A stretch of DNA of 62,402 bases, filler included. It is 14 parts of 14 records of this genome, joined end to end, with 100 filler letters (N's around TTAATTAATTAA, not from the genome) between each part and the next. Parts side by side here need not be neighbours in the genome. Positions count along the whole stretch, not along the records: positions 48,713 to 57,042 come from SRR15195285_6030; 13 more parts are not named here. One strand, 5' to 3'. Within the stretch, counting starts at the first letter, position 1; each line of letters opens with the position of its first letter. Of the stretch, positions 4,351 through 57,042 are shown piece by piece. Both the position numbers and the translations under genes were made by a program. The notes beneath the pieces are model-generated. The model saw only the letters and a program-made list of their open reading frames with translations, searched no databases and was not told the origin of the DNA.

Positions 4351-4450
4351 NNNNNNNNNNNNNNNNNNNNNNNNNNNNNNNNNNNNNNNNNNNNTTAATT
4401 AATTAANNNNNNNNNNNNNNNNNNNNNNNNNNNNNNNNNNNNNNNNNNNN
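4351..4450. other. artificial contig spacer
   Basis: 44 N + TTAATTAATTAA + 44 N. Confidence 0.99.
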
Positions 4451-39748: not shown

Positions 39749-41293
39749 CTACATCCATAATGTCAAAATGTGTACAACGGCTGCTGACACACATCTCACA
39801 ATATCCCACTGCGACAAGCCATTGTACGCCCCAGAGTGGTCGCTGTCGGGAGCTGGTGACGATGTAGTCGTAGTAGTCGAAGAATATGACGAAGATGAAA
39901 TGGTAGTATGAGATTCTCGAGAAGATGACCGGCGGCGGCTCGATGATGATGGTCGGTGATCGCAACCAAAACACGCGCAGGACACTTCGTCAGGTCCCGA
40001 TCTGCGGCGACGGGACAAAATCGAGTTCCGGCCGGTGCATGTCGATGGGCACCCGCCGGAGAGGCAGCAACCACCATTGGAACAGGATCCACGTGGGCAT
40101 GATGAAGTCTGAGCGGGAGCATCTTCTTCGTACGTGCATGGAGCGTTCGAGGGCGACGACGATGAGGAGGATGATGGTGCTGGCGGAGGTGCAGGGCAAG
40201 ACTGCGCAACGGAACACGTTCCTGCAGTATTTTCGTTTAGCTGGATCACGCTGGTAAAGTACCCAGTATGGCAGCACAGTGTGGTCGAATGGCAGTCGCC
40301 ATTGTGGCAGAAGGTGCTGCTCGCACGGTTGCCGGCGCCCACACACACGTCTGCACCTACACATGGCAGGTACCCCGGGTTAGAGGGTTCGTTTGCTTGG
40401 TCAACTGACTCCAAGTCAGACGCCATTCGGTCCATTTGCGCGCCGATGCTGTTGCAAATCCGTGATGCAGATTGACTAGCGATCCACTGGCACGGGTTGC
40501 TCCAAGACGTGTCACCGTCAGCAAGGATGCATATCGCTGTGAACAGGGCCCCACAAACAACCGGACGGCCTGAAACTGAAGAGCAGATCGTCTGCAGGTC
40601 ACATCTACCACTTCCCGTGACCATATTGATTGCGCGCTCCACCACGTCCTCACATAAGCTGCGCTTCTCGGCAGCACTCGGCGCATCGTTATCCGTCAAG
40701 CTTCTGAAGAGCGAGTACACGCTCTTGACGACACCCCCTGCACCCTCAGCAACGCACTGGAGGCTCGTGTCCACGATCGCGAGCCCCTGCGTTTGCACAT
40801 CACCAAGGTCAAAGCTGCGAGTCCATCAACGTGGGCGGCACATCCAAGCAAATGGACTCACGGTCTGCAGCCGCCGCCACTCGGCGTCTGTCATGTTGGC
40901 GAGGGGCTTTTGCATCAGTTCCACGAATAGGTCATTGCGCTGCAGCGCGCGGAATTCGTTCGCATCTGCCACTGCCGTTCCCTCTGTCGAGTTGCTGTCG
41001 TGTATGTCAGGACCCAGAGCTTCCCTGCGTGGGCACAAGTGAGGAATCTGGCAACTGGTATAGCTCGGCAGTACCCATGCGGGTGCATCGGGGAAACATG
41101 GGCAGCTGCGACCCTACTACGCGCGCAGACCGCTGCGCGTATGGAGTTGTCTACAGCACGCATGCCGAATTACCGATGCGCACAGGGTCACTCACACATG
41201 CGCAGCTGCGCTGCTCACCAAAAGTACGACGGCCACTAGACGATGTGACACTGATGGGTACATGCGACCGGCGGCGGACCCGAGCCCGGACAT
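39749..41293 (-). CDS. secreted Cys-rich surface protein, possible GPI anchor, 3 exons
   Basis: Signal-like LVAVVLLVSSAAA; GT-AG introns link EALGPD...WRRLQT and ORF 39749..40798; many Cys; S/T-rich stalk; hydrophobic C-terminus VSAAVVHILTLWM*. Confidence 0.6.
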
Positions 41294-42817: not shown

Positions 42818-45140
42818 TTAACCTTTCTGCTCGAAGTACTCAAAATCGATCAGCATTGTGCATCCAAGCAGCGCCATTTTCTGCGCCGCCGACGCGTTTT
42901 GCGGAAAAGTGACTCGAAAATTGTTCACTTTCGCCATCATCTCCGCACAACCATTGAACACCTGCGGGTGCAAGATCAAACGATGACATCATTTAGCACC
43001 AGCCATTGTGATGCTGGATACAGCACCGGTGCAGCGCTGCACTGCAAATATCACATCTTCGCGACGTCAACACGAAGTGGATAGAGGAGAGGAGAGGAGA
43101 AAAGGAAGGGCACCTTTGAAATATGGGCCTGCGTTGGATTGCCAACTGGATCGGTGATGTCGAACTCGACTGCACCAAGGCAGGGGCAGCAAATGCCCAC
43201 CTGGCATACAGAGCCGGCAGCGCCGTAGATCTGGTTGCCGTTAACGTCGTAAACTGCAATAGTGGCACCAGCAGCGGCAGCAGCAGCAGCAGGTGAGCCA
43301 GGTGAATTCAGACGGTGTCACAAAAAGCCCCTGCCTGCTGAAATTTCGGCATACCACGCTGATCCATGACACAGCAGTGCCATGGGTCATCGACCGAGCC
43401 GACCTTGTTGCCTTGGCCATCGAAAATCATCACCTGCAGCGAGTGTCAATTTGAACAAAATGCAGACAGATAGCAGACAAGAAATTGTAGAGAACAACTC
43501 GCATGCAGGCATATGCCGGGACTTATGACCGTAGCAGAACGTACCGATGGCCTACAGCATGGGAGCATGGCCAGTCCGAACGATTTGTGGATCTGCATGA
43601 TGACAGCGGCATCTTCGCCCTGACCCTCGTGCACGTACAATGCGAGGTGGCGATTCTGCTTGCAACAGATGCGCTCGAACCCGGCCGATTCCTCCCTGGC
43701 GAGCATGCAGAACGGTCCAGGCACGTGTGGATTGTTCGGGTCCCAGTTGTGAATGTGGTACCGGTTCTTGGCCTCACAGCCTGTGACGAGCTCTGCGACA
43801 TTCACCTGCTGCTTGATCTCCATCCCTGCCATCTGCGCCAGCAGCGTGTTCTCGCCCACGGTAGTACTGCCTCCTGCCGCCGCTGGGTCACCCCCGAAAC
43901 CAGCCAGCATGGGACCCGTCGTGGGCTGTGGCACGCTTGGATTCACTAGCGTCGCTTGGACTGGCTGAGCTGGTGTCACAGGCACCGCCACTTGAAACAT
44001 TTGCCCTTCGGCGACGCCATCAGGAACGACCACGTTGAACGCGAGGCCGTTGGCACTCGCCTGAAGCTGCGTACCAGGGCCCGAGCCTTTGGGTACCTGC
44101 ACCTGGATGGTCTGCGCCGGCGGCTGAAGGAACGCCTGCGTCGCAGCTCGAGGGAAGGACTTGACTGCGCCACCATTGAACGGTGCTGTTGCCAGGCTCT
44201 TGTTGCGGAAGTGGTGGCAGCAGCAGCACGATATGAATAGCGGCCCTATGGTAAAGATGAGTGAAGGCAAGATACTGAGGAGCACGACAGCACCTCTGTG
44301 GTCCTCGTCGTATTCGGGGCACATCCAGCCCTCGAAACTATCGATGGTCACGACTTCGCCTGAACTGGTGGAGGTACACGCTGTAACACAATCTGCTCGT
44401 CCAGTGTAATCATACCCGGCCACACAGTCGCCGTGCCCATCGGCTGTACACCCGTCGTCATCGGCCGCCCACGTTGGCCGTTCCCTCGTCCCGTGGTTTT
44501 CGCGGAACGGTTTTTCTTTGCAGCATACAACCGGTTGTTCTGCAGCGCCCGCTGCGCACATGTACGACGACGCGGTCGCTGGGTCGCAGCACATGTACTG
44601 ACCCTCTGGGTCATTGGAGCACCAACCTATTGGGACAGCACTTGCGCCGCCAGCACACGTCGCCAGCTCACCATCTGGGGCGCAGCAATCGTCGCCAAGG
44701 CTTGTGCAGCTGTCCCTACACGGCGGCTCGCCGGGGGTGGGCACTCGGTATGCTTGTTCACCCACGCCGCACGTCAGTCCGGGCGGCGTGTCGGCAGCCC
44801 AGACCGCCCGTTCGGCGAACCGGATGCATCCTCCCGATGCATCCTCCTGCTTTGCACTGGGCGTGAATGTCTGAAGTTCATCGGCCGTGCACAAGTGCCC
44901 GTCTAGAGAAGCGCAATGGCTGACCGCGTCCGCGTAGCTCATGGAGTCACAGTTGTCACCCTTGAAGCACGTCGGTCCCTTGCCATCCCGCACCTGCATC
45001 TGCCGCCGTGCTACTGCTGCGTCGCCGCTCCCAACGACATCCCAGCTGTGACGAGGCTCGCTCGTGTGAGCAACCAACAGCAGCGCCGTGGCCACGCCCG
45101 CCCACGCCACGAGGCCGACGTAGCGGCACGTCATCGACAT
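42818..45140 (-). CDS. phospholipid scramblase (PLSCR) domain protein with Cys-rich ectodomain and TM helix, 4 exons
   Basis: IKQQVNVAELVTGCEAKNRY, AREES..ERICC..NR, then spliced exons VMIFDGQGNKVGSVDDPW / YGAAGSVCQVG...VEFDI...ISK / VFNGCAE...NNFRVTFP...KMALLGCTMLIDFEYFEQKG*. Confidence 0.9.
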
Positions 45141-48712: not shown

Positions 48713-48713
48713 G

Positions 48714-51436
48714 GAGCCGGAGCCGGAGCCAGAGCCGGAGCCCGCGTCACAAACTGGCGAAACTGCGGTGGTCACAACGCAGCGGAAGCCACCACGGACG
48801 TCGACCGCCGTAGAAGATCTTCCGACAGACCTGGGTGGCGTCATTATTCGAGGGACTGGTCGAAACGAGCATGACAGCGGTGCCGACGCCGTGGGAGACT
48901 TCCTGAGCGCGCTCGGCATGCCGCCAGACGCTGGTGGTGGCGCTGAATCCAGCAACAGTGAGCGTGGGGGCCCAGCAGCACCCGTTCAAGTCTTCGGCGG
49001 TGCGGTAGACTTGCGCGCTTCGCCAGCTGTTGTGGACAAGTCCAAGAATACGAGTAGTCGCAGTCGGAGAGCACGCGAGCGATCCCGACGATCCAGAGCA
49101 GGGCGGCACGAGTTTGAAGAGAACGGCTGCGATGGTGCCAATGGCAACTCTGGACACGCAAGAAGTGATGATGAGATCGTAGTGACTGAGGTCCAGCTGT
49201 ACTCCGACGCTCCGGGCATTGATACTGACGATGGCAGTAATGACGAGTCGGACATGGCCCCAAGTGACAGCGCGGAAAGTGAAGCTGACCATGCTCCGGG
49301 TCGGTCACGGGGATTTCATAAGGATGATTCTAGTCGCAGGAACAGAGGAAGACAGCAGCAGAGGAAGCGCTGGGGCACGGCTCGTACAGCCTCCAACTAC
49401 TACGGCGAGCGGGACAAGGATCAGAAGAAAGACGGCTATTTAGACTACCGAGAGAAGGAAGAGGCGGCGCAGGCAACCCTTGCCAAAGCTCGTGAGCGGG
49501 GTGCTGGGACTGGTCCACTCGATGATCGTGGTTTGCGAGCTGCAACAGAGGCGGCGCATCGTCACCAGGTAGATATGCCAGCAGCGGCTGGGACAGTGCT
49601 AGGGCAAGGCATAGGTGGAGGCAGCCGAGCGTACAGCTCATCCTGGGACCGCGAGCACAGCCTGCAGATAAAGCTGCGAGAGTGCATGGCTGATCGGGAG
49701 GAAATGCGCCAGGCACTAGAGGAAAGTCAGCGTGAGGTCAGCGCATTGAGCACGAAACTAAAGAAAGCCGCTACCTCCTCCAAGAGGCAGAACTCGAGTA
49801 CGTGGAAGCTGCGGCAAGAAGTCGACCAGCTGAAGGTGGATGTGGCCAAGAAAGCTGAAGCGCTAGAAGCGGAGTTCAAAGCTCACGCACAGTACCGTGA
49901 GCTGGTGGAAGACACGATGCAGCAGCAAGCAGTGGCAGAAACCAAGTACAAGGCGGTGCTCGTCTCGGCACAGGGTGAAGCCATGGCGGCGGCGGCAGTC
50001 GTGCAGAACGAGAAGGCTGCAGCACGCCGGTTCGTTGAACAAGTTGCCTCGGAGATGGAACGTGCGGTCATGAAAGATCTCGGTGATCTACGAGACGTGG
50101 TGAGCGATGAGATGCGGTCAGCCTCGCTGAGGATCGAGCGTGTCAGTGCAGCATCAGGCAGGCTCAAGACGGAGCTCATCAACGCGCAGCGTGCAGCCAT
50201 GGTGGCAGGGATGGAGGCGTCTCAGGCGACAGTAGATGCAGAAAGGGCAGAAGAACAGCGGATGGAAGCTGTGCAGCGTGCCAAGATTGCTACTGATCGG
50301 CTGGCGCATAGTGGTGCCGGAGCTGGAGTGGACGCGACTGGGTCTTCAACCACAGCAGGAGGATCACGGTCGCCGCCATCTTCGGCGACGCAACAGCCGC
50401 AACAGGAGCTGGAAGAAAGGATACGTGAGCTGGAGGGATCGTTGCAAGCTGCAATCACTGGGCGTCGGGCAGCAGAGGAAGCAGCGGTCGAGGCGACCTC
50501 TAGGACTGCTAAGGCCGAAGCTAGGTAAGCAATTGCATTTACACCAGACCTGGTGCTTTAGATACCGCTATGATGTGTTCTCTTTCGGTGGCTGAAGGTT
50601 TGGCTGACTGTGAATGGTCCATCTATCTGTGTGCTTGACTGCTGGTGCTGCTCTGTTCCGGTACCACGTGCTACTGACTGTTGCCACAGGGCATCCGATC
50701 TGAAACGCGAAGTAGATGCTGCGATCAGGTCCTCCGCCAAAGCCGCAGAGGCACTGCGCGTTGCGCAGGAGGGCAGTTGTGCGGCTCAGAGCACAATCGA
50801 GCAGCTGCGAGCCGACCTGAAACTGATCAGGGATGATTTCGTGGCATGCCAAGAGAGCTTAGAAATGGCAAGGTCTGAGTCTAGAACCCAATTCGAAGAG
50901 ATCAGAAAGTCCCGAGAGGAGCAGCGGTCAGCCATTGTCACAGCAGAGGCAGCCCAGAGAGAAGCAGCAGAGAAGGTAGCGCAGATACGGAATCTCGAGC
51001 TTGAACTAGTGGCAGAGCGAGCAAGATCGGCGCAACCTGCCACACAGACGCAAGGAGAGCACTCACGACACTCGTCGGTAGACATGGAGGCCAACGGCGC
51101 AAGGAAGGCGACAAGGCGGCGTCAAGATCAGCAGGCTAGTGTGTCCTATTCGGTGCCATCGCAGTCGGCATCGCGTCATCAGCAGCCAGGCCTGGTCATT
51201 ACGCCGGAAGCCCTGAATTGGTGCGCCAGACTTGCCTGCATTACAACACGCAATCTGACGGTCCCTGTGCCATCGATTGGCTCACTGCTGACTTGCATTG
51301 CGTGTTCGTGCACGGATGATTTCGTCGAATGGTTGTTGGATGGTCCGCTACGCTTTGCTATGTGCATCGCAGGATAAGCAAGCTTGTGGCTTGCCTCTTG
51401 ATCGGTTGGGCAGCAGGTGAGGTACTGGTGCGCTAG
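48714..51436 (+). CDS. long coiled-coil protein with C-terminal TM tail (golgin-like architecture), 5' partial, 3 exons
   Basis: Starts in an (EP)n tract; disordered acidic region; long heptad-rich helix; introns ~50525-50690 and ~51221-51372; last exon ISKLVACLLIGWAAGEVLVR*. Confidence 0.65.
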
Positions 51437-52060
51437 TCCATCCGTACGGCGCGCTAATGTCTAGGATAATCATTTTGAATGTACATGCATCGACTACCTT
51501 ATGATGAGTTCCTTGTTGGCCCACGCGCGTACTGTTTACTACATTTCTGTGCGCTGGGGCAACCACCACTACACCGCGGTGGGCCTCGCAATCGAGCCAC
51601 AGTTGGTAGTTGCATGCCACATTCACGCCATTTTTTCGGTTCATCTTTAAACACAGGTAACTCACTCTCTTCCACTTCGGGTAGCCGGCATGAGCGCTGA
51701 AACTCCCGAAACGCGGAAGTGCTCCTCGCGTTCCAAAATCAGCTCGTCCCATAGTATCTGCCGCAAAGCTCATTCGCTTCGTCTTCTCTTCCTCTTCGAT
51801 GACTCTGACTCCTGACAACGGGCATACTACTAGTAGTATGGGCCCTTATGCCCAGCGTCACTCCGACACCTTGTCCATTAAAGAAATCAAATGCGCTTCC
51901 CCGTTTCCATGTTACAAGGTTCGTTACGCACACTATGCCGCTCCAAGCTTCAACCTCAGTTGCCGCGCCGGAGACCGGCTGATTTCTACTATAAATAATT
52001 GCTTCAACGATCTTCATGATCTGTGGGATGAACCAGACGTGGACTGGATCTCTGACTGAA

Positions 52061-52183
52061 TATTCGAATAGTAAGTCCATGTGCATATTCGAATAGTAGA
52101 GCCGTACTGTCCTACTTGTTTATTATAGTAGCTCTAGAGATACTACTACTACTACTATTCGAATAGTAGCTATATTCAGAATA
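52061..52183. repeat. TATTCGAATA palindrome x3 (+1 variant) with (TAC)n in an AT-rich tract
   Basis: Copies at 52061, 52086, 52156; variant tattcagaata at 52173. Confidence 0.8.
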
Positions 52184-52567
52184 CTGTAGTACCGGACAGT
52201 GTACTCTAGCTAGAGATCTAGTTCCTACGGTATTGTAAATTCATGTGTATTACTCTAAGAATATGATACTTTGATACTAGTAGTCATAGTAGAGCCCACG
52301 CACAGCTCAGCGGAGTACTACAGCTGTAGTACGTGCGGCGTACGCGTGTTAACACGCGTACATGTACCGGTAGTCACGAGGCGCGGTGCCATCAATTCAC
52401 GGTGCCATCAATGCACGGCGTGAGTGACATGATTCGACCGTACTGTGCCTGTATTATAGCACAATTCATAAAAAGTGCCTTCATCGTGATGCTGGCCGTA
52501 AAACCATTATCCTTAAGTACCCCTTGACGGCGGGTGATCCGGCATCTGCTCTACTGGCGCACAGAAA

Positions 52568-53776
52568 ATGGTACTCTTGCTACGTAGCCTGTGTCGCGTC
52601 CACTCGACAGTGCAGCCGCGCGTCGTCGCTGGCCTTGCTTTCGGCGGCGGAGTGGCACTCACGCTCACAACACCGGAGGGTCGTGCCACTGCGTGCGAGG
52701 CCAATGTGCCGGCGCTGCTGGGCACTGCCGCTGCCGGGTTTGGTCTCGCCTGGATGGTGAAGCCGAGCGACAGCCTCCAGGGCTATGCCGAGGCGCGGAT
52801 GACGGAGGCAAATAAGCGTGCAATTGTCATAAAGCAGCAACTGGCAGCAGGCGACCCAGCGGCGGTGAAGAAGATCACCTACAATCTCGATCGAAGCACG
52901 TTCCTGTTTAAGCAGGGCAGCGCGCCTGCCAACGACCTGCAACTCAAGGAGAAGATCTTTTACTTTATCCTAGGAGCCCTGTCCGATCCGATGACAACGA
53001 TGGACTTCAGTACTGGTACCAAGGGCAAAGGTGCGCCCGTCGGTGTAGGGTGCCTCGACGTGAACATGATTAAAGCCACGAAGAAGTTGCTGCTGGCTCC
53101 CATGAGCGAGGATGACAAAGCGTGGTCACTGGAGTACATGTCCGTCGCTAACCCAGACAGCGGCGTATACAAGTTGGCATACACTTTTGCCCGTCAAATC
53201 GTCCACAACATCGACATTTTTGACGCCGATTTGAACGGTGAGATTCAACCCGCCCGTGCCCACATCCAAGTCTTTGTGACGAGTGCGTGCGTGCACATGT
53301 AGTATGAATGACCGCGCAGCCTGTGCGGCCCACACCACAATCTCTAATCCAACCGCTGCAATCTGTACATGCTCTCAGGTGAGCTCACAGCCCCCGAGCT
53401 CTGCTCCGCATGCATGATCATCTCCCGGATCTGCCTAAACAAAAACACATCCCCACAGCAAAGTATGCAAGAGTTGTTCGTGGCGATCGATGAGGATGGG
53501 GACGGTGCGATCAGCAGCGAGGAGCTCTGGGGCTTCATACTCATGTGCCTCCGCTTGGGCCGTGTCACTCCAGAGCTCGCGGAGCTGGTCAAGCAGAAGT
53601 TTGACCAAGCACCAGTGGATGGGAAGGGCAACGTGAGCAAGGCTGATGGGGACGCAGCGCTCGCTGCTGTTGTGACCGCACTTCTACAAAAGTACGACGT
53701 CGATGGCAACCAGCAGATAGACTTGCAGGAGTTCAGCAAGCTCTACCCAATGCTTCGCCTCTCGCAGGGCCAGTGA
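52568..53776 (+). CDS. EF-hand calcium-binding protein with organelle-targeting-like N-terminus, 2 exons
   Basis: Intron 53283-53378 joins the ORFs in frame; EF loops DEDGDGAISSEE and DVDGNQQIDLQE; acid-free R/L/S start followed by hydrophobic segments. Confidence 0.8.
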
Positions 53777-54152
53777 ACTAGATCTAGCTTAGCCAAAGCG
53801 AGAGGGTGGCTACGCGCCTTGCTTTGCCGGTGGACTCGAATAAATGAACCTAATGAGGCGAAATGCACATTGATTTTCACTAGAAGAGCAGGGTTGCCTC
53901 CTCCGCTCATGAGATCTAGTCCGCGGGAGAAAATTTGGTTCCGCTACTAGTATGGGTACGTAGATTAGTCACGCATGTTAGCCACAACGCTCCCGATTGT
54001 ACGGCCGGTGGCGGTGGTGTCCGCGGCGGCATTTGGCGCCGGGATGATGGCGAGGCGTGCCGAAAGTGGCTGCGTGACGCCGCCATGGCACGATTAAATC
54101 CATGCTGAACCACCAAGTTAGAATTTGCTGCTGAAGTAAATTACTATTAGAC

Positions 54153-56585
54153 TCAACGAAACAGGATCAACCCATGCTTTGCCAAGCACTCGTCGAACGT
54201 CTTTCGATGACGGGAGCAGTGACTCGCTGCTTCTTTCAAGCCGGTGTCATCCGTGACTCCGTGAGATTTTTCAAGTGTGTCCTGCAAGCCTCCACCTGTC
54301 GCATTTGACATCATTTCTAGACAATCCGCATACTTTTTCATCGCGGAGCCACATAAAACTTGAGCTTGGTTGAGTGGCGACTGCATGCATCGAACATGCT
54401 CATGTATAGCCTTGGAGCAGGCTTGCGTGTGGGTGCCCGATTTGCACTTCGTGTATGCCTTTACCGCAGCTTCTCCACATTGTTCCGCAATCGCTTGCGC
54501 GCAAGCCAACCGATTCTTCTTCGACTGCAGCACCCCTAATCCAAGGCTGCTAGTATGATGCGAGAGCATGCGACTCTCATGCTTATGTACCTGCATCTCG
54601 CACCGCCCAGCGGTTGCCACTGACACCCAGACCGGCTCGCTTTTAATGCGGCCGGTCGGCAAGCGTTTGAACGCTGACCAGAGCGTGAATTTAGTTTCGC
54701 CAGCAGGCAGAGTCACTGTTCCGTGTCCAAAGCGCTCAAAAACAGGAATTGGAATCTCTGGCCCGCGGCACCACCTACCGTCTACAGGTTCCCATATTGA
54801 AATCTTACGAACACGCCGCGTAGTCACAGAACCGAAGAATTCTGTGGTCTTCACAAACGCTTCGCATTCGACCTTGTTTAGGTCTTCTCGAATTTCAATC
54901 GCTCGACGCTCGGCATCAGATTCATCAGATAGATCCCAGTCTTGATCTTCGCAGTGCGCAAGGCCGCGCACGTCTCTGTGGTACACGGTGATGAAGAGCT
55001 CTTGTTCCTGCTCCCTTGGAGGTACGGTACATTCTGCCGCAGTCCAGCAATTGTCGAGCCTCACGCTGGTTACGTTTACAGTGTCGGCCACACCGTCGCC
55101 AGTGTTGTCTTGCTTCACCAGTTCCCAAGGGTCGCACACAGTGATTTCGCCAAAATACTTGGCAAAATCTTCCATGGCCATGAAGAACGACCCGTCATCC
55201 GAGTCCGTCTGGTCTGGCCGCCTTGTTAGTGCCCGTAGCGCTGATGTCCAGCGTGGATCGTCGTCATTCCAAGGCCCTGTGTATTCAATCTTGCCCAAGG
55301 GATTGCGAAGCTGAACCAACCGCACGTCATCAGGGAACTCGATTGCATCAAGAACAGAATACGCATGCTGAGGTACAAGCCCACAACTCCTTAGCATTTT
55401 GTTCGTATCGAAAAGGTCAAACTTTTTGCTGGCTAGAATTGGGTCCACTGAACAGCACATAATTTTTTGTCGTAGTGGCGAGCGCTTTCCCTCCTGCACG
55501 AGCGTTTTCAGCTTGAGCCACGAACTTTCCGTGTCGTGATGAAAACCAAGCGCATCCACCCGGCCTCCACACAGGTAATGCAAAGCATCTCCACTCCTTC
55601 CTCCAATCGTGTTCATATATCCCCCATGTAGCTTAGCCCACGCCTTCTCAGCGATCATCACCCACAGCTCCATTTCCTGGCGTGGTGATCCGTCGTGCGG
55701 ATCAGAGTGAGCAAAGAGTGGAGTCCACTCACCGGTCTCAGTGAGTCGAACTTCGTTCTCAGTGCGTCGAACTTGGAGCTTCGGAACGACAGGGAAAAGA
55801 TCGTCAACCACCACGGTCACCCAACTACCATTCACAAAAAACTTAACGCCGTAAAGTCCCACATCGCTGCCATCCTCGATGATCAAGTCTTCGATTAATT
55901 TCCCACCCTCTGCTGCAGCGCAGGACGAAAGTGCCGCCAAAAAGTAGCAGTTGCCGAGTGCTCCTTGTGTGATGTCCTCCGGAGAGGCACCGTCTGAAAA
56001 GACGACCGGCTTACGCCCGGACGCCGCGAATTCCTCAGGTCGCTTCCACTCAACACCAACACCTTGGTTGGACCATGCGTCGTGCGCTGGGAAGACTGTG
56101 TCGGTAAATTTTTTGCCAGATGCCCGGAGCGCAGCCGCAAGCTCGCGCACTGCGGCCTCGCCATCCGCGTCTCTCTGCTGTGTAGACGACCATATTTCAA
56201 TCAGTGGCTCCGTAGTCCCTTCCTTGGCTTCTCCTCGGAATCGAAGGTTCTGGGCGCGCATGACCAGGCTGTCGAGCGAACGGGCACTGGGCTGCGGGTG
56301 CAAGCTGTCCGATTTGACTGCTACTGGCAGCCTATCCTCGCTGCGGACCGGCATCGTCCAGCGAGTCTGCTGGGTCTCCGTGTTGTAGTAGTACGTACGA
56401 CCACTTGCGGGATCTGTCGCTGCTGTCCACACTTGTGGCAGAGACGATGCATTCTGCTCCGCGATAGTCAGATCCTTTCCCACTATGGCCCACATCGTTC
56501 CCGCCATCACTGCAGAGCTCGCGGCGACAAGATGCCGCCCACCACGGAGTCTCGACGCGTAGTGGATGATGCTAGACCGTTGCAT
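54153..56585 (-). CDS. calpain (CysPc) protease with N-terminal WW domain and C-terminal CX9C-type motifs
   Basis: WW: LPQVWTAATDPASGRTYYYNTETQQTRWTMP; catalytic QGALGNCYFLAAL, HAYSV, LRNPLG; EKAWAKLHG; DDGSFFM. ATG 56585 preferred over GTG 56933. Confidence 0.9.
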   Translation of the reverse strand: MQRSSIIHYASRLRGGRHLVAASSAVMAGTMWAIVGKDLTIAEQNASSLPQVWTAATDPASGRTYYYNTETQQTRWTMPVRSEDRLPVAVKSDSLHPQPSARSLDSLVMRAQNLRFRGEAKEGTTEPLIEIWSSTQQRDADGEAAVRELAAALRASGKKFTDTVFPAHDAWSNQGVGVEWKRPEEFAASGRKPVVFSDGASPEDITQGALGNCYFLAALSSCAAAEGGKLIEDLIIEDGSDVGLYGVKFFVNGSWVTVVVDDLFPVVPKLQVRRTENEVRLTETGEWTPLFAHSDPHDGSPRQEMELWVMIAEKAWAKLHGGYMNTIGGRSGDALHYLCGGRVDALGFHHDTESSWLKLKTLVQEGKRSPLRQKIMCCSVDPILASKKFDLFDTNKMLRSCGLVPQHAYSVLDAIEFPDDVRLVQLRNPLGKIEYTGPWNDDDPRWTSALRALTRRPDQTDSDDGSFFMAMEDFAKYFGEITVCDPWELVKQDNTGDGVADTVNVTSVRLDNCWTAAECTVPPREQEQELFITVYHRDVRGLAHCEDQDWDLSDESDAERRAIEIREDLNKVECEAFVKTTEFFGSVTTRRVRKISIWEPVDGRWCRGPEIPIPVFERFGHGTVTLPAGETKFTLWSAFKRLPTGRIKSEPVWVSVATAGRCEMQVHKHESRMLSHHTSSLGLGVLQSKKNRLACAQAIAEQCGEAAVKAYTKCKSGTHTQACSKAIHEHVRCMQSPLNQAQVLCGSAMKKYADCLEMMSNATGGGLQDTLEKSHGVTDDTGLKEAASHCSRHRKTFDECLAKHGLILFR

Positions 56586-57042
56586 CTCCACAATGCAGCA
56601 GCGGGCCAAGCGGCCGGTCAACGACACCATCTGCAGCAGCACAATGCACAGCCCACGCAGGTGTGCCGAAAGCGAAAGGTCGCTGGCAACGAAGGCCTTC
56701 CTTCCGAGTCTCATGCAATACACGGAACTATCACTCACGCATGCACCAGGCAGCGCGTGCACTCGGCGAGTCCCACTGCATGATTGATGGCATGATGGTG
56801 CACGCGCGTAACCTCGCATCATCGCCCGGGCATACTGTACAGGCATACAAGGCTTTTTCAGGGTCATGCACGAGGGCGTCGTGGTGTGCGGCGCGGTTAA
56901 CGTTGATTTCCGCCTGTCCCCTCCCCGGGACACTGTCCGCGTGTCCGCTTTTGTCAGATTACCGGTACAGATTACAGATTACAGTTTGTTACACGTACAA
57001 ACGGCATTACCGTTTTTAAAAGCAGCATGTATTAGAAACGGC

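Follow-up and report, generated by a model that had tools for sequence, protein, structure and literature searches.

An intron-less gene for a non-classical calpain with a presequence-like leader, a WW domain and a lineage-specific cysteine-bearing tail

In the present study, we examined a marine protist gene for a non-classical calpain that lies on the minus strand of a 62,402-nucleotide stretch of DNA (hereafter, the window). The window consists of separate contigs, which are joined between positions 4351 and 57142 by 13 spacers of the form N44-TTAATTAATTAA-N44; thus, neighbourhood across a spacer is meaningless, and the true neighbours of the calpain open reading frame (ORF) are only those on its own piece, 48713-57042. 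The ORF is open throughout its 810 codons, from the ATG at 56585 to the stop codon. The gene is real and intron-less, and the encoded protein is composed of a basic leader, a weak hydrophobic segment, a WW domain, a calpain protease (CysPc) core, a calpain-type beta-sandwich and a helical tail that bears Cys residues (Table 1). This is a new combination of domains in a known enzyme family, and it does not appear in the published surveys that we searched.

Table 1. Features of the calpain gene and of the RNA-library contigs that match it (positions in the window; KD, Kyte-Doolittle hydropathy)
Feature	Position	Strand	Remarks
Calpain coding sequence	54153..56585	-	810 residues; stop codon 54153-54155; no intron detected; start codon uncertain
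Leader, residues 1-18, presequence-like	56532..56585	-	basic, acid-free: 4 Arg, 2 His, 3 Ser/Thr
Weakly hydrophobic segment, residues 19-36, candidate stop-transfer/sorting segment	56478..56531	-	Ala/Ser/Gly-rich; KD mean 1.65
WW domain, residues 49-79	56349..56441	-	Pfam PF00397, E 1.3e-11, full-length match
Calpain protease core (CysPc), residues 160-484	55134..56108	-	Pfam PF00648 Peptidase_C2, E 6e-60
Catalytic C213	55947-55949	-	motif alignment
Catalytic H407	55365-55367	-	motif alignment
Catalytic N428	55302-55304	-	motif alignment
Calpain-type beta-sandwich (CBSW/C2L, domain III), residues 485-668	54582..55133	-	structural alignment
Cys-bearing helical tail, residues 669-810, 9 Cys	54156..54581	-	no relatives except a 99%-identical strain
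CX10C, C703-C714	54444..54479	-	predicted helix 689-715
CX9C, C723-C733	54387..54419	-	predicted helix 720-734
CX9C, C745-C755	54321..54353	-	predicted helix 741-762
CX9C, C790-C800	54186..54218	-	predicted helix 780-809
RNA-library contigs	54300-54502, 54849-55093, 55380-55683, 55875-56141		all colinear with the calpain ORF

The WW domain matched the whole Pfam model (positions 1-31 of 31; 44.8 bits against a cut-off of 26.9), with both Trp residues and the final Pro present, and its strands lie at residues 53-57, 64-68 and 73-76 in the predicted structure. The core matched positions 1-296 of the 297 in Peptidase_C2 (203.2 bits; cut-off 23.8), and the motifs around C213, H407 and N428 align with the catalytic motifs of the human calpain-3 and calpain-5 cores. 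A full-length AlphaFold2 model was built on a 26-row alignment (block means of the core mostly 80-95). In comparison with solved calpain cores, the modelled core has the two-lobed papain-like fold: it aligned with the calpain-3 core 6bjd_A at a VIA-align Z of 32.6 (root-mean-square deviation (rmsd) 2.2; 297 residues aligned), and calpain structures accounted for 24 entries at a Z of at least 18.5. On the calpain identity, the canonical WW domain and the intact Cys/His/Asn triad, the initial annotation was thus confirmed.

The sandwich was recognised by structure: the model aligns to full m-calpain (3bow_A) as far as residue 661 (Z 32.4; 416 aligned), and model residues 484-668 align, with moderate model confidence, to the distal C2-like domain of calpain-7 (2qfe; Z 9.2; rmsd 2.7; 107 aligned). 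It includes a low-confidence acidic insert at about residues 543-601. Pfam scans of the protein gave no match for the sandwich, including Calpain_III, and no EF-hand (PEF) domain. The motif Arg-Asn-Pro-Trp-Gly...Glu-Trp, near-universal among calpains, reads Arg-Asn-Pro-Leu-Gly...Glu-Tyr here (residues 427-436), and both Trp residues are kept in two relatives (P0003 and locus L001). The first Trp of this motif contributes to keeping classical calpains inactive without Ca2+. As it is replaced by Leu, the regulation of this calpain may differ.

Of the words sampled from the stretch around the gene, 29-70% were present in 15 marine or seawater DNA runs and 5-7% in four RNA-library runs. The RNA libraries, from three studies, gave four contigs of 203-304 nt with 0-2 mismatches; these run colinearly with the ORF and show no joints, which is consistent with an unspliced transcript. 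The contig at 54300-54502, from an oligo-dT library and without mismatch, spans tail residues 695-762 and three of the four Cys motifs. In agreement with the initial annotation, which read the protein through into the tail, neither a splice nor a stop codon interrupts the frame before 54550; the RNA contigs leave the junction of sandwich and tail (54503-54848), the start-codon region and 54153-54299 uncovered, and the libraries may contain DNA. Two short RNA pieces at the ends of the stretch around the gene (54040-54075 and 56966-57000) were disregarded, as they continue into unlike sequence. An in-frame intron in the acidic insert of the sandwich was considered; a single RNA contig runs colinearly through residues 498-579. 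A stand-alone small CHCH gene beginning at Met673 was ruled out, as no stop codon lies between the tail and the calpain frame.

We preferred the ATG at 56585 as the start codon because it is aligned with the first Met of P0004 and its relatives. Upstream in-frame ATGs are found at 56630, 56714, 56819-56822, 56846 and 56867, with the stop-to-stop frame extending to 56978, and public gene models of the same protein begin earlier, by 15 codons in P0002 (825 aa) and by 59 in P0026 (869 aa).

From this ATG, the first acidic residue of the calpain is at position 38; Lys-Asp or acidic residues follow the hydrophobic segment. Residues 19-36 have a summed insertion energy of +2.25 on the biological hydrophobicity scale. 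The same leader design is common to six calpain lineages, namely P0001 (this calpain), P0004, P0005, P0036, P0037 and P0038. Their leaders are acid-free and 18-26 residues long, with 4-10 Arg or Lys (5-10 in the five further lineages, three of which begin Met-Leu-Arg), and are followed by Ala/Gly-rich segments with KD values of 1.25-2.2 and positive summed insertion energy in the best window of 15-18 residues; in the case of P0036, the scripted best window lay further downstream, and the first hydrophobic stretch was picked by eye. The design matches that of the bipartite stop-transfer presequence as described in a section of PMC8061763.

All six leader-bearing lineages fall in one 11-row clade (SH-aLRT 99) in a quick maximum-likelihood tree of 27 rows, which omits P0002 (near-identical to P0001), P0023-P0025 and the fragments P0040, P0042-P0044, P0046 and P0047. 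The clade is completed by three rows that are N-terminally cut and by P0003 and P0041, which have a long charged N-terminal region; within it, the WW-bearing P0004, P0001 and P0045 form a subclade (98). The recurrence of the same kind of leader in five further calpain lineages of one clade speaks for a function of this leader. P0045 is the closest non-identical relative of the calpain (66% identity over the shared part). Its record begins within the WW domain and ends within the core, and an additional insert of about 60 residues separates its conserved N-terminal helix region from the protease core.

At the other end of the protein, the tail contains nine Cys residues (695, 703, 714, 723, 733, 745, 755, 790 and 800). 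Of these, eight pair up into one CX10C and three CX9C motifs that follow one another without overlap, with exactly the spacing that the initial annotation had claimed. In composition-preserving shuffles of the last 145 residues (n = 100,000), at least four CX9-10C motifs arose in 0.65% and at least three CX9C motifs in 0.68%. As background, 5 of 183 other six-frame ORFs in the window (at least 100 aa) also contained at least four CX9-10C motifs within 110 residues; four of the five are rich in Cys (14-19 Cys per 130 aa), and the fifth has Cys residues as sparsely as the calpain tail. The motif pattern is real and unlikely to arise by chance, but it is not decisive alone. Two ORFs that served as background, 43446-45140 and 39749-40624 (both on the minus strand), contain Cys-dense stretches (15-16 Cys in 130 residues) and resemble secreted Cys-rich proteins; the former begins with a signal-peptide-like N-terminus.

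Tentatively, and with somewhat less than even confidence, we favour the reading that this calpain is imported into mitochondria by the stop-transfer route and faces the intermembrane space (IMS), with a lineage-specific double CHCH-like tail. Its import route, topology and disulfides, and any redox or Ca2+ control, are what we infer from the features described above. The N-terminus would be a mitochondrial presequence of the bipartite stop-transfer type and would engage TOM/TIM23 through its basic part. The weak hydrophobic segment would then arrest in the inner membrane, with the whole enzyme, from the WW domain through the protease to the sandwich, facing the IMS; the calpain would remain tethered there or would be released by a second cleavage. 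The four CX9/10C motifs would be oxidised to two disulfide-stapled helical hairpins, that is, a double CHCH-like module of the CHCHD5/NDUFA8 kind. This module would retain or dock the protease in the IMS, a job that a C-terminal membrane segment would do in orthologous lineages. In favour of this reading are the leader design, which six lineages of one well-supported clade share and which differs from the apparent signal peptides in the window, the predicted placement of every Cys motif in a helix of its own, and the resemblance of the tail, albeit below threshold, to twin-CX9C families only. The proposal in the initial annotation of an IMS-localised, possibly redox-regulated calpain is thus partly supported, and the location and the redox regulation remain putative.

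A number of observations on both ends of the protein, included in this and the next two paragraphs, weigh against this reading. The start codon is unproven, given the upstream in-frame ATGs and the earlier-starting public models, and this qualifies the mitochondrial-type leader of the initial annotation, which otherwise stands as basic and acid-free, then hydrophobic, and shared with five lineages. P0003 and P0041, although related, have no leader, and the leader was read from composition and comparison only. WW domains and calpains are typically cytosolic, and we know of no WW domain in the IMS. With regard to the tail, the motif cluster reaches only p ~0.007 by shuffling, and one background ORF is similarly sparse. 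One of the motifs is CX10C, a ninth Cys is present, and the second hairpin would require a loop of 34 residues.

The family resemblance of the tail is also weak. In the Pfam scan of the whole tail, five of the seven matches at E <=10 were Pet191_N, COX17, UPF0203, COX6B and CHCH, the best being Pet191_N (16.0 bits; cut-off 24.4) and COX17 (15.5; 24.9). For residues 738-810, all five matches were to Cmc1, CX9C, UPF0203, COX17 and COX6B (E 0.03-0.07, all sub-threshold), with 14.7 bits for Cmc1 (cut-off 22), 14.1 for CX9C (26.4) and 13.7 for COX6B (26); residues 695-740 gave two matches, COX17 and PTH2. Thus, in whole- and half-tail scans, no Pfam twin-CX9C family reached its curated cut-off (about 8-16 bits against 22-27), and the sub-threshold matches largely restate the Cys spacing, because aligned cysteines dominate such scores. 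In an ESM Atlas feature search, the ten best named matches were all CHCH, CX9C, NDUFA8 or Cmc1 clusters, with 162-181 of 256 features in common with the tail; their scores of 0.82-0.84 are under the 0.9 line, and with this tool one-third of shuffled proteins reach 0.8 and one-third get all ten matches in one clan. The predicted structures have low confidence and disagree on the helix breaks. Modelled alone, the tail forms three long helices (predicted local distance difference test (pLDDT) 57.8). In the full-length model (tail pLDDT 29-47), it forms helices at 689-715, 720-734, 741-762, 767-775 and 780-809, which place each Cys motif in a separate helix. Foldseek with the low-confidence tail model gave nothing in the PDB at E <=0.001, and the best VIA-align match among 48,161 chains had a Z of 9.4 (PsbQ-like proteins and designed helix bundles), where the bar for helical models is about 13; made with such models, these searches say nothing either way about a CHCH fold. 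The tail sequence gave a single meaningless match among PDB sequences (E 0.85). With matches below curated cut-offs, an ESM Atlas score of 0.84 and poor models, the tail, the motifs of which the initial annotation had likened to the Mix14/CHCHD5 layout, fails the formal test of membership in the CHCH families, yet it may work like such a module.

When the last 145 residues were searched with phmmer among 1.84 billion representative proteins, no relative emerged beyond P0002, from a 99%-identical strain. P0035, a spurious tandem-repeat protein (E 8.7e-07 over a 29-residue stretch), was rejected as a relative of the tail. Between the two strains there are nine differences in 810 residues, three of them in the 142-residue tail, and all nine Cys are retained; strains this close are no basis for judging purifying selection on the cysteines. 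To compare orthologous C-termini, we had three loci from a single metagenome scan, L001, L002 and L003 (35% identity over 141 residues), of which L001 and L002 provided C-termini; a profile of C-terminal halves yielded only P0047, from the same lineage as L002. L001, of the P0004 lineage, is interrupted by introns, with a last exon that can be aligned to the end of the sandwich, and L002/P0047 stands for 22 clustered sequences. After the sandwich, both have a strongly hydrophobic segment of 17-19 residues (KD 2.3-2.4, negative insertion energy). L001 ends with a hydrophobic 17-mer and four residues, and P0047/L002 with a Pro/Ala-rich stretch, a small-residue patch and a hydrophobic terminus of 17-19 residues with nothing beyond. 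Conservation of the Cys spacing in orthologues, the check that the initial annotation had set, could not be confirmed: on the sequences available, the CX9C tail is restricted to one lineage, and two orthologous lineages end in a hydrophobic segment.

These observations bear on an alternative in which the tail is not of the CHCH type. It would be a young, fast-evolving helical extension, derived, for example, from read-through into former 3' sequence or from a captured fragment, and its Cys spacing would be fortuitous. The location of the protein would then be set by the leader alone, or the true start would lie elsewhere and the protein would be cytosolic, so that this account overlaps with the other alternatives. 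It is consistent with the lack of relatives outside the same species, the different C-termini of the orthologues, the three strain differences, out of nine, that fall within the tail (142 of 810 residues), the low-confidence models and the motif counts of background ORFs. We consider it improbable, in view of the shuffling result, the arrangement of eight of the nine Cys in four disjoint motifs each in its own predicted helix, the convergence of the weak family matches on one clan, the retention of all nine Cys in the second strain, and the oligo-dT RNA contig that spans three of the motifs.

Domain swapping in this calpain family seems to concentrate at the C-terminus, past the beta-sandwich. 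The more distant relatives P0007-P0012 end in CxxC-rich, zinc-finger-like tails, and P0012 begins with a PH domain. The Pfam partners among the relatives listed were WW, PH, C1_2 (PF03107) and LIM. No co-occurrence of Peptidase_C2 with a CHCH-type Pfam family was found among these relatives (24 and 31 proteins), which is weak evidence of absence, since the lists were drawn from precomputed Pfam assignments of the 8000 candidates sharing most words.

The Pro/Ala-rich stretch and hydrophobic end of P0047 would also suit a secretory, surface-anchored protein, which is a further point against an IMS location; a secretory or surface calpain is the main rival to it. In this case, the N-terminus would be a signal peptide or anchor with an unusually long basic n-region, and the bulk of the protein would be in the lumen of the endoplasmic reticulum or at the surface. 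The orthologues would be held by a C-terminal transmembrane or glycosylphosphatidylinositol (GPI)-type segment, and the tail would make ordinary secretory-pathway disulfides. Besides the Pro/Ala-rich stalk and hydrophobic end of P0047/L002 and the hydrophobic 17-mer near the end of L001, the positive N-flank, which would place the C-terminal bulk across the membrane, and the small residues that close the hydrophobic segment in several lineages agree with this. However, the n-regions span 18-26 residues, hold up to 10 Arg and in three cases open with Met-Leu-Arg; the h-segments are rich in Gly/Ala, and their summed insertion energy is positive; and the tail resembles only IMS families, below threshold. 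The apparent signal peptides of four other ORFs in the window (starts unverified) look quite different, being hydrophobic within a few residues and having 0-2 basic residues in the first 30. To our knowledge, there is no secreted calpain and no luminal WW domain. We regard a secretory or surface location as unlikely.

Another possibility is that the protein is mitochondrial but does not face the IMS, being either fully imported into the matrix by its leader, with no arrest at the weak hydrophobic stretch, or anchored in the outer membrane with the WW domain and the protease in the cytosol; the Cys residues of the tail would then be reduced or metal-binding. The weak, Gly-rich hydrophobic segments (KD 1.25-2.2) are compatible with this, and the cytosol is the usual compartment of WW and calpain domains. 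On the other hand, the positive charge N-terminal to the segment and the Lys-Asp or acidic residues after it favour translocation of the C-terminal side. The C-terminal membrane segment of the orthologues also fits an IMS-facing layout like that of cytochrome c1, which has a bipartite presequence and a C-terminal membrane anchor, the layout that L001 and P0047 would have. Moreover, CX9C-type tails are characteristic of the IMS, judging from family names and from PMC8061763. We consider this possibility quite improbable.

Under the favoured stop-transfer reading, the calpain can be compared with known IMS proteins. Yeast Mia40, as PMC8061763 describes it, is imported by stop-transfer via TIM23, and its C-terminal CX9C domain is then oxidised in the IMS by existing Mia40; the same paper lists AIF and Smac as stop-transfer IMS proteins and the protease Atp23 as a Mia40 substrate. 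In yeast Mia40, cytochromes b2 and c1, AIF and Smac, a hydrophobic arrest segment comes after a basic presequence, and the calpain has a candidate for each. They have no sequence relationship to the calpain, and the import of its WW-calpain passenger of about 85 kDa is predicted only. The tail shows weak Pfam and language-model resemblance to double twin-CX9C proteins (CHCHD5/Mic14 and NDUFA8) and to single CHCH families (Cox17, Cmc1, Pet191 and COX6B). Like CHCHD5/Mic14 and NDUFA8, it has four Cys-X9/10-Cys motifs in consecutive helices, which are predicted here. Unlike CHCH proteins, it has a CX10C motif, a ninth Cys, 34 residues between motifs 3 and 4, and no match above threshold. Furthermore, CHCH proteins are small and stand-alone, whereas the module here is fused to a large enzyme.

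Among calpains, the membrane-anchored proteins of oomycetes and brown algae also combine CysPc, with or without CBSW, with WW and a membrane tether, according to parts of PMC10762896 and PMC3563603. As described there, they bear WW at the C-terminus and are tethered by a large multi-pass MEM domain preceded by C2; in contrast, the present calpain has an N-terminal WW domain, a single weak hydrophobic segment as putative tether behind a presequence-like leader, and a CX9C C-terminus. In mammals, calpain-1 has been reported in the outer membrane, the IMS and the matrix, and calpain-10 in every compartment; the N-termini of both are described as amphipathic targeting sequences, and AIF as a substrate cleaved in the IMS (reviewed in PMC8392834). 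Calpain-1, -2 and -10 thus resemble our protein in that a calpain is placed in mitochondria, including the IMS, which is a prediction here. They are mainly cytosolic with a minor mitochondrial pool and have neither a hydrophobic sorting segment nor a CHCH module, whereas here a whole clade has a bipartite-type leader. Judged by title and abstract, none of the papers retrieved describes a calpain that carries a CHCH or twin-CX9C module, and the main text of a survey of 41 calpain architectures (PMC3563603) contains neither 'CHCH' nor 'mitochondri'. Within these sources, the initial annotation was right not to recognise the architecture among described calpain types.

On the same contig, a convergent neighbour of the calpain encodes an EF-hand protein (52568-53776, plus strand). 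Its second ORF, 53369-53776, matched EF-hand_1 (E 2e-12) and EF-hand_7 (E 7.5e-12), and a GT...AG intron at about 53238-53378, located by eye, interrupts a further EF-hand loop between its two ORFs. The N-terminus is of calpain-like design, with a basic leader, Gly/Ala-rich hydrophobic stretches and the first acidic residue at 37; judging from this resemblance, it could be a second protein routed like the calpain.

The debate on whether calpains truly act in mitochondria still draws on fractionation of mammalian tissue. It is possible, if rather doubtful, that marine protists have a dedicated clade of IMS calpains imported by bipartite presequences and held in some lineages by a C-terminal membrane anchor, in this one by a captured double CHCH module. 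If the secretory alternative were true instead, this would be a WW-bearing calpain outside the cell, likewise an unusual protein. If the IMS reading is true, a protease of about 85 kDa would be a client of the mitochondrial disulfide relay, with its retention or activity coupled to the redox state of the IMS, and a calpain with a CHCH-like tail would far exceed in size every known passenger bearing such a module. It would also be the protist equivalent of the AIF-releasing IMS calpain debated in mammals, and a calpain clade with a hard-wired bipartite-type leader would offer a cleaner system for the question of mitochondrial calpains.

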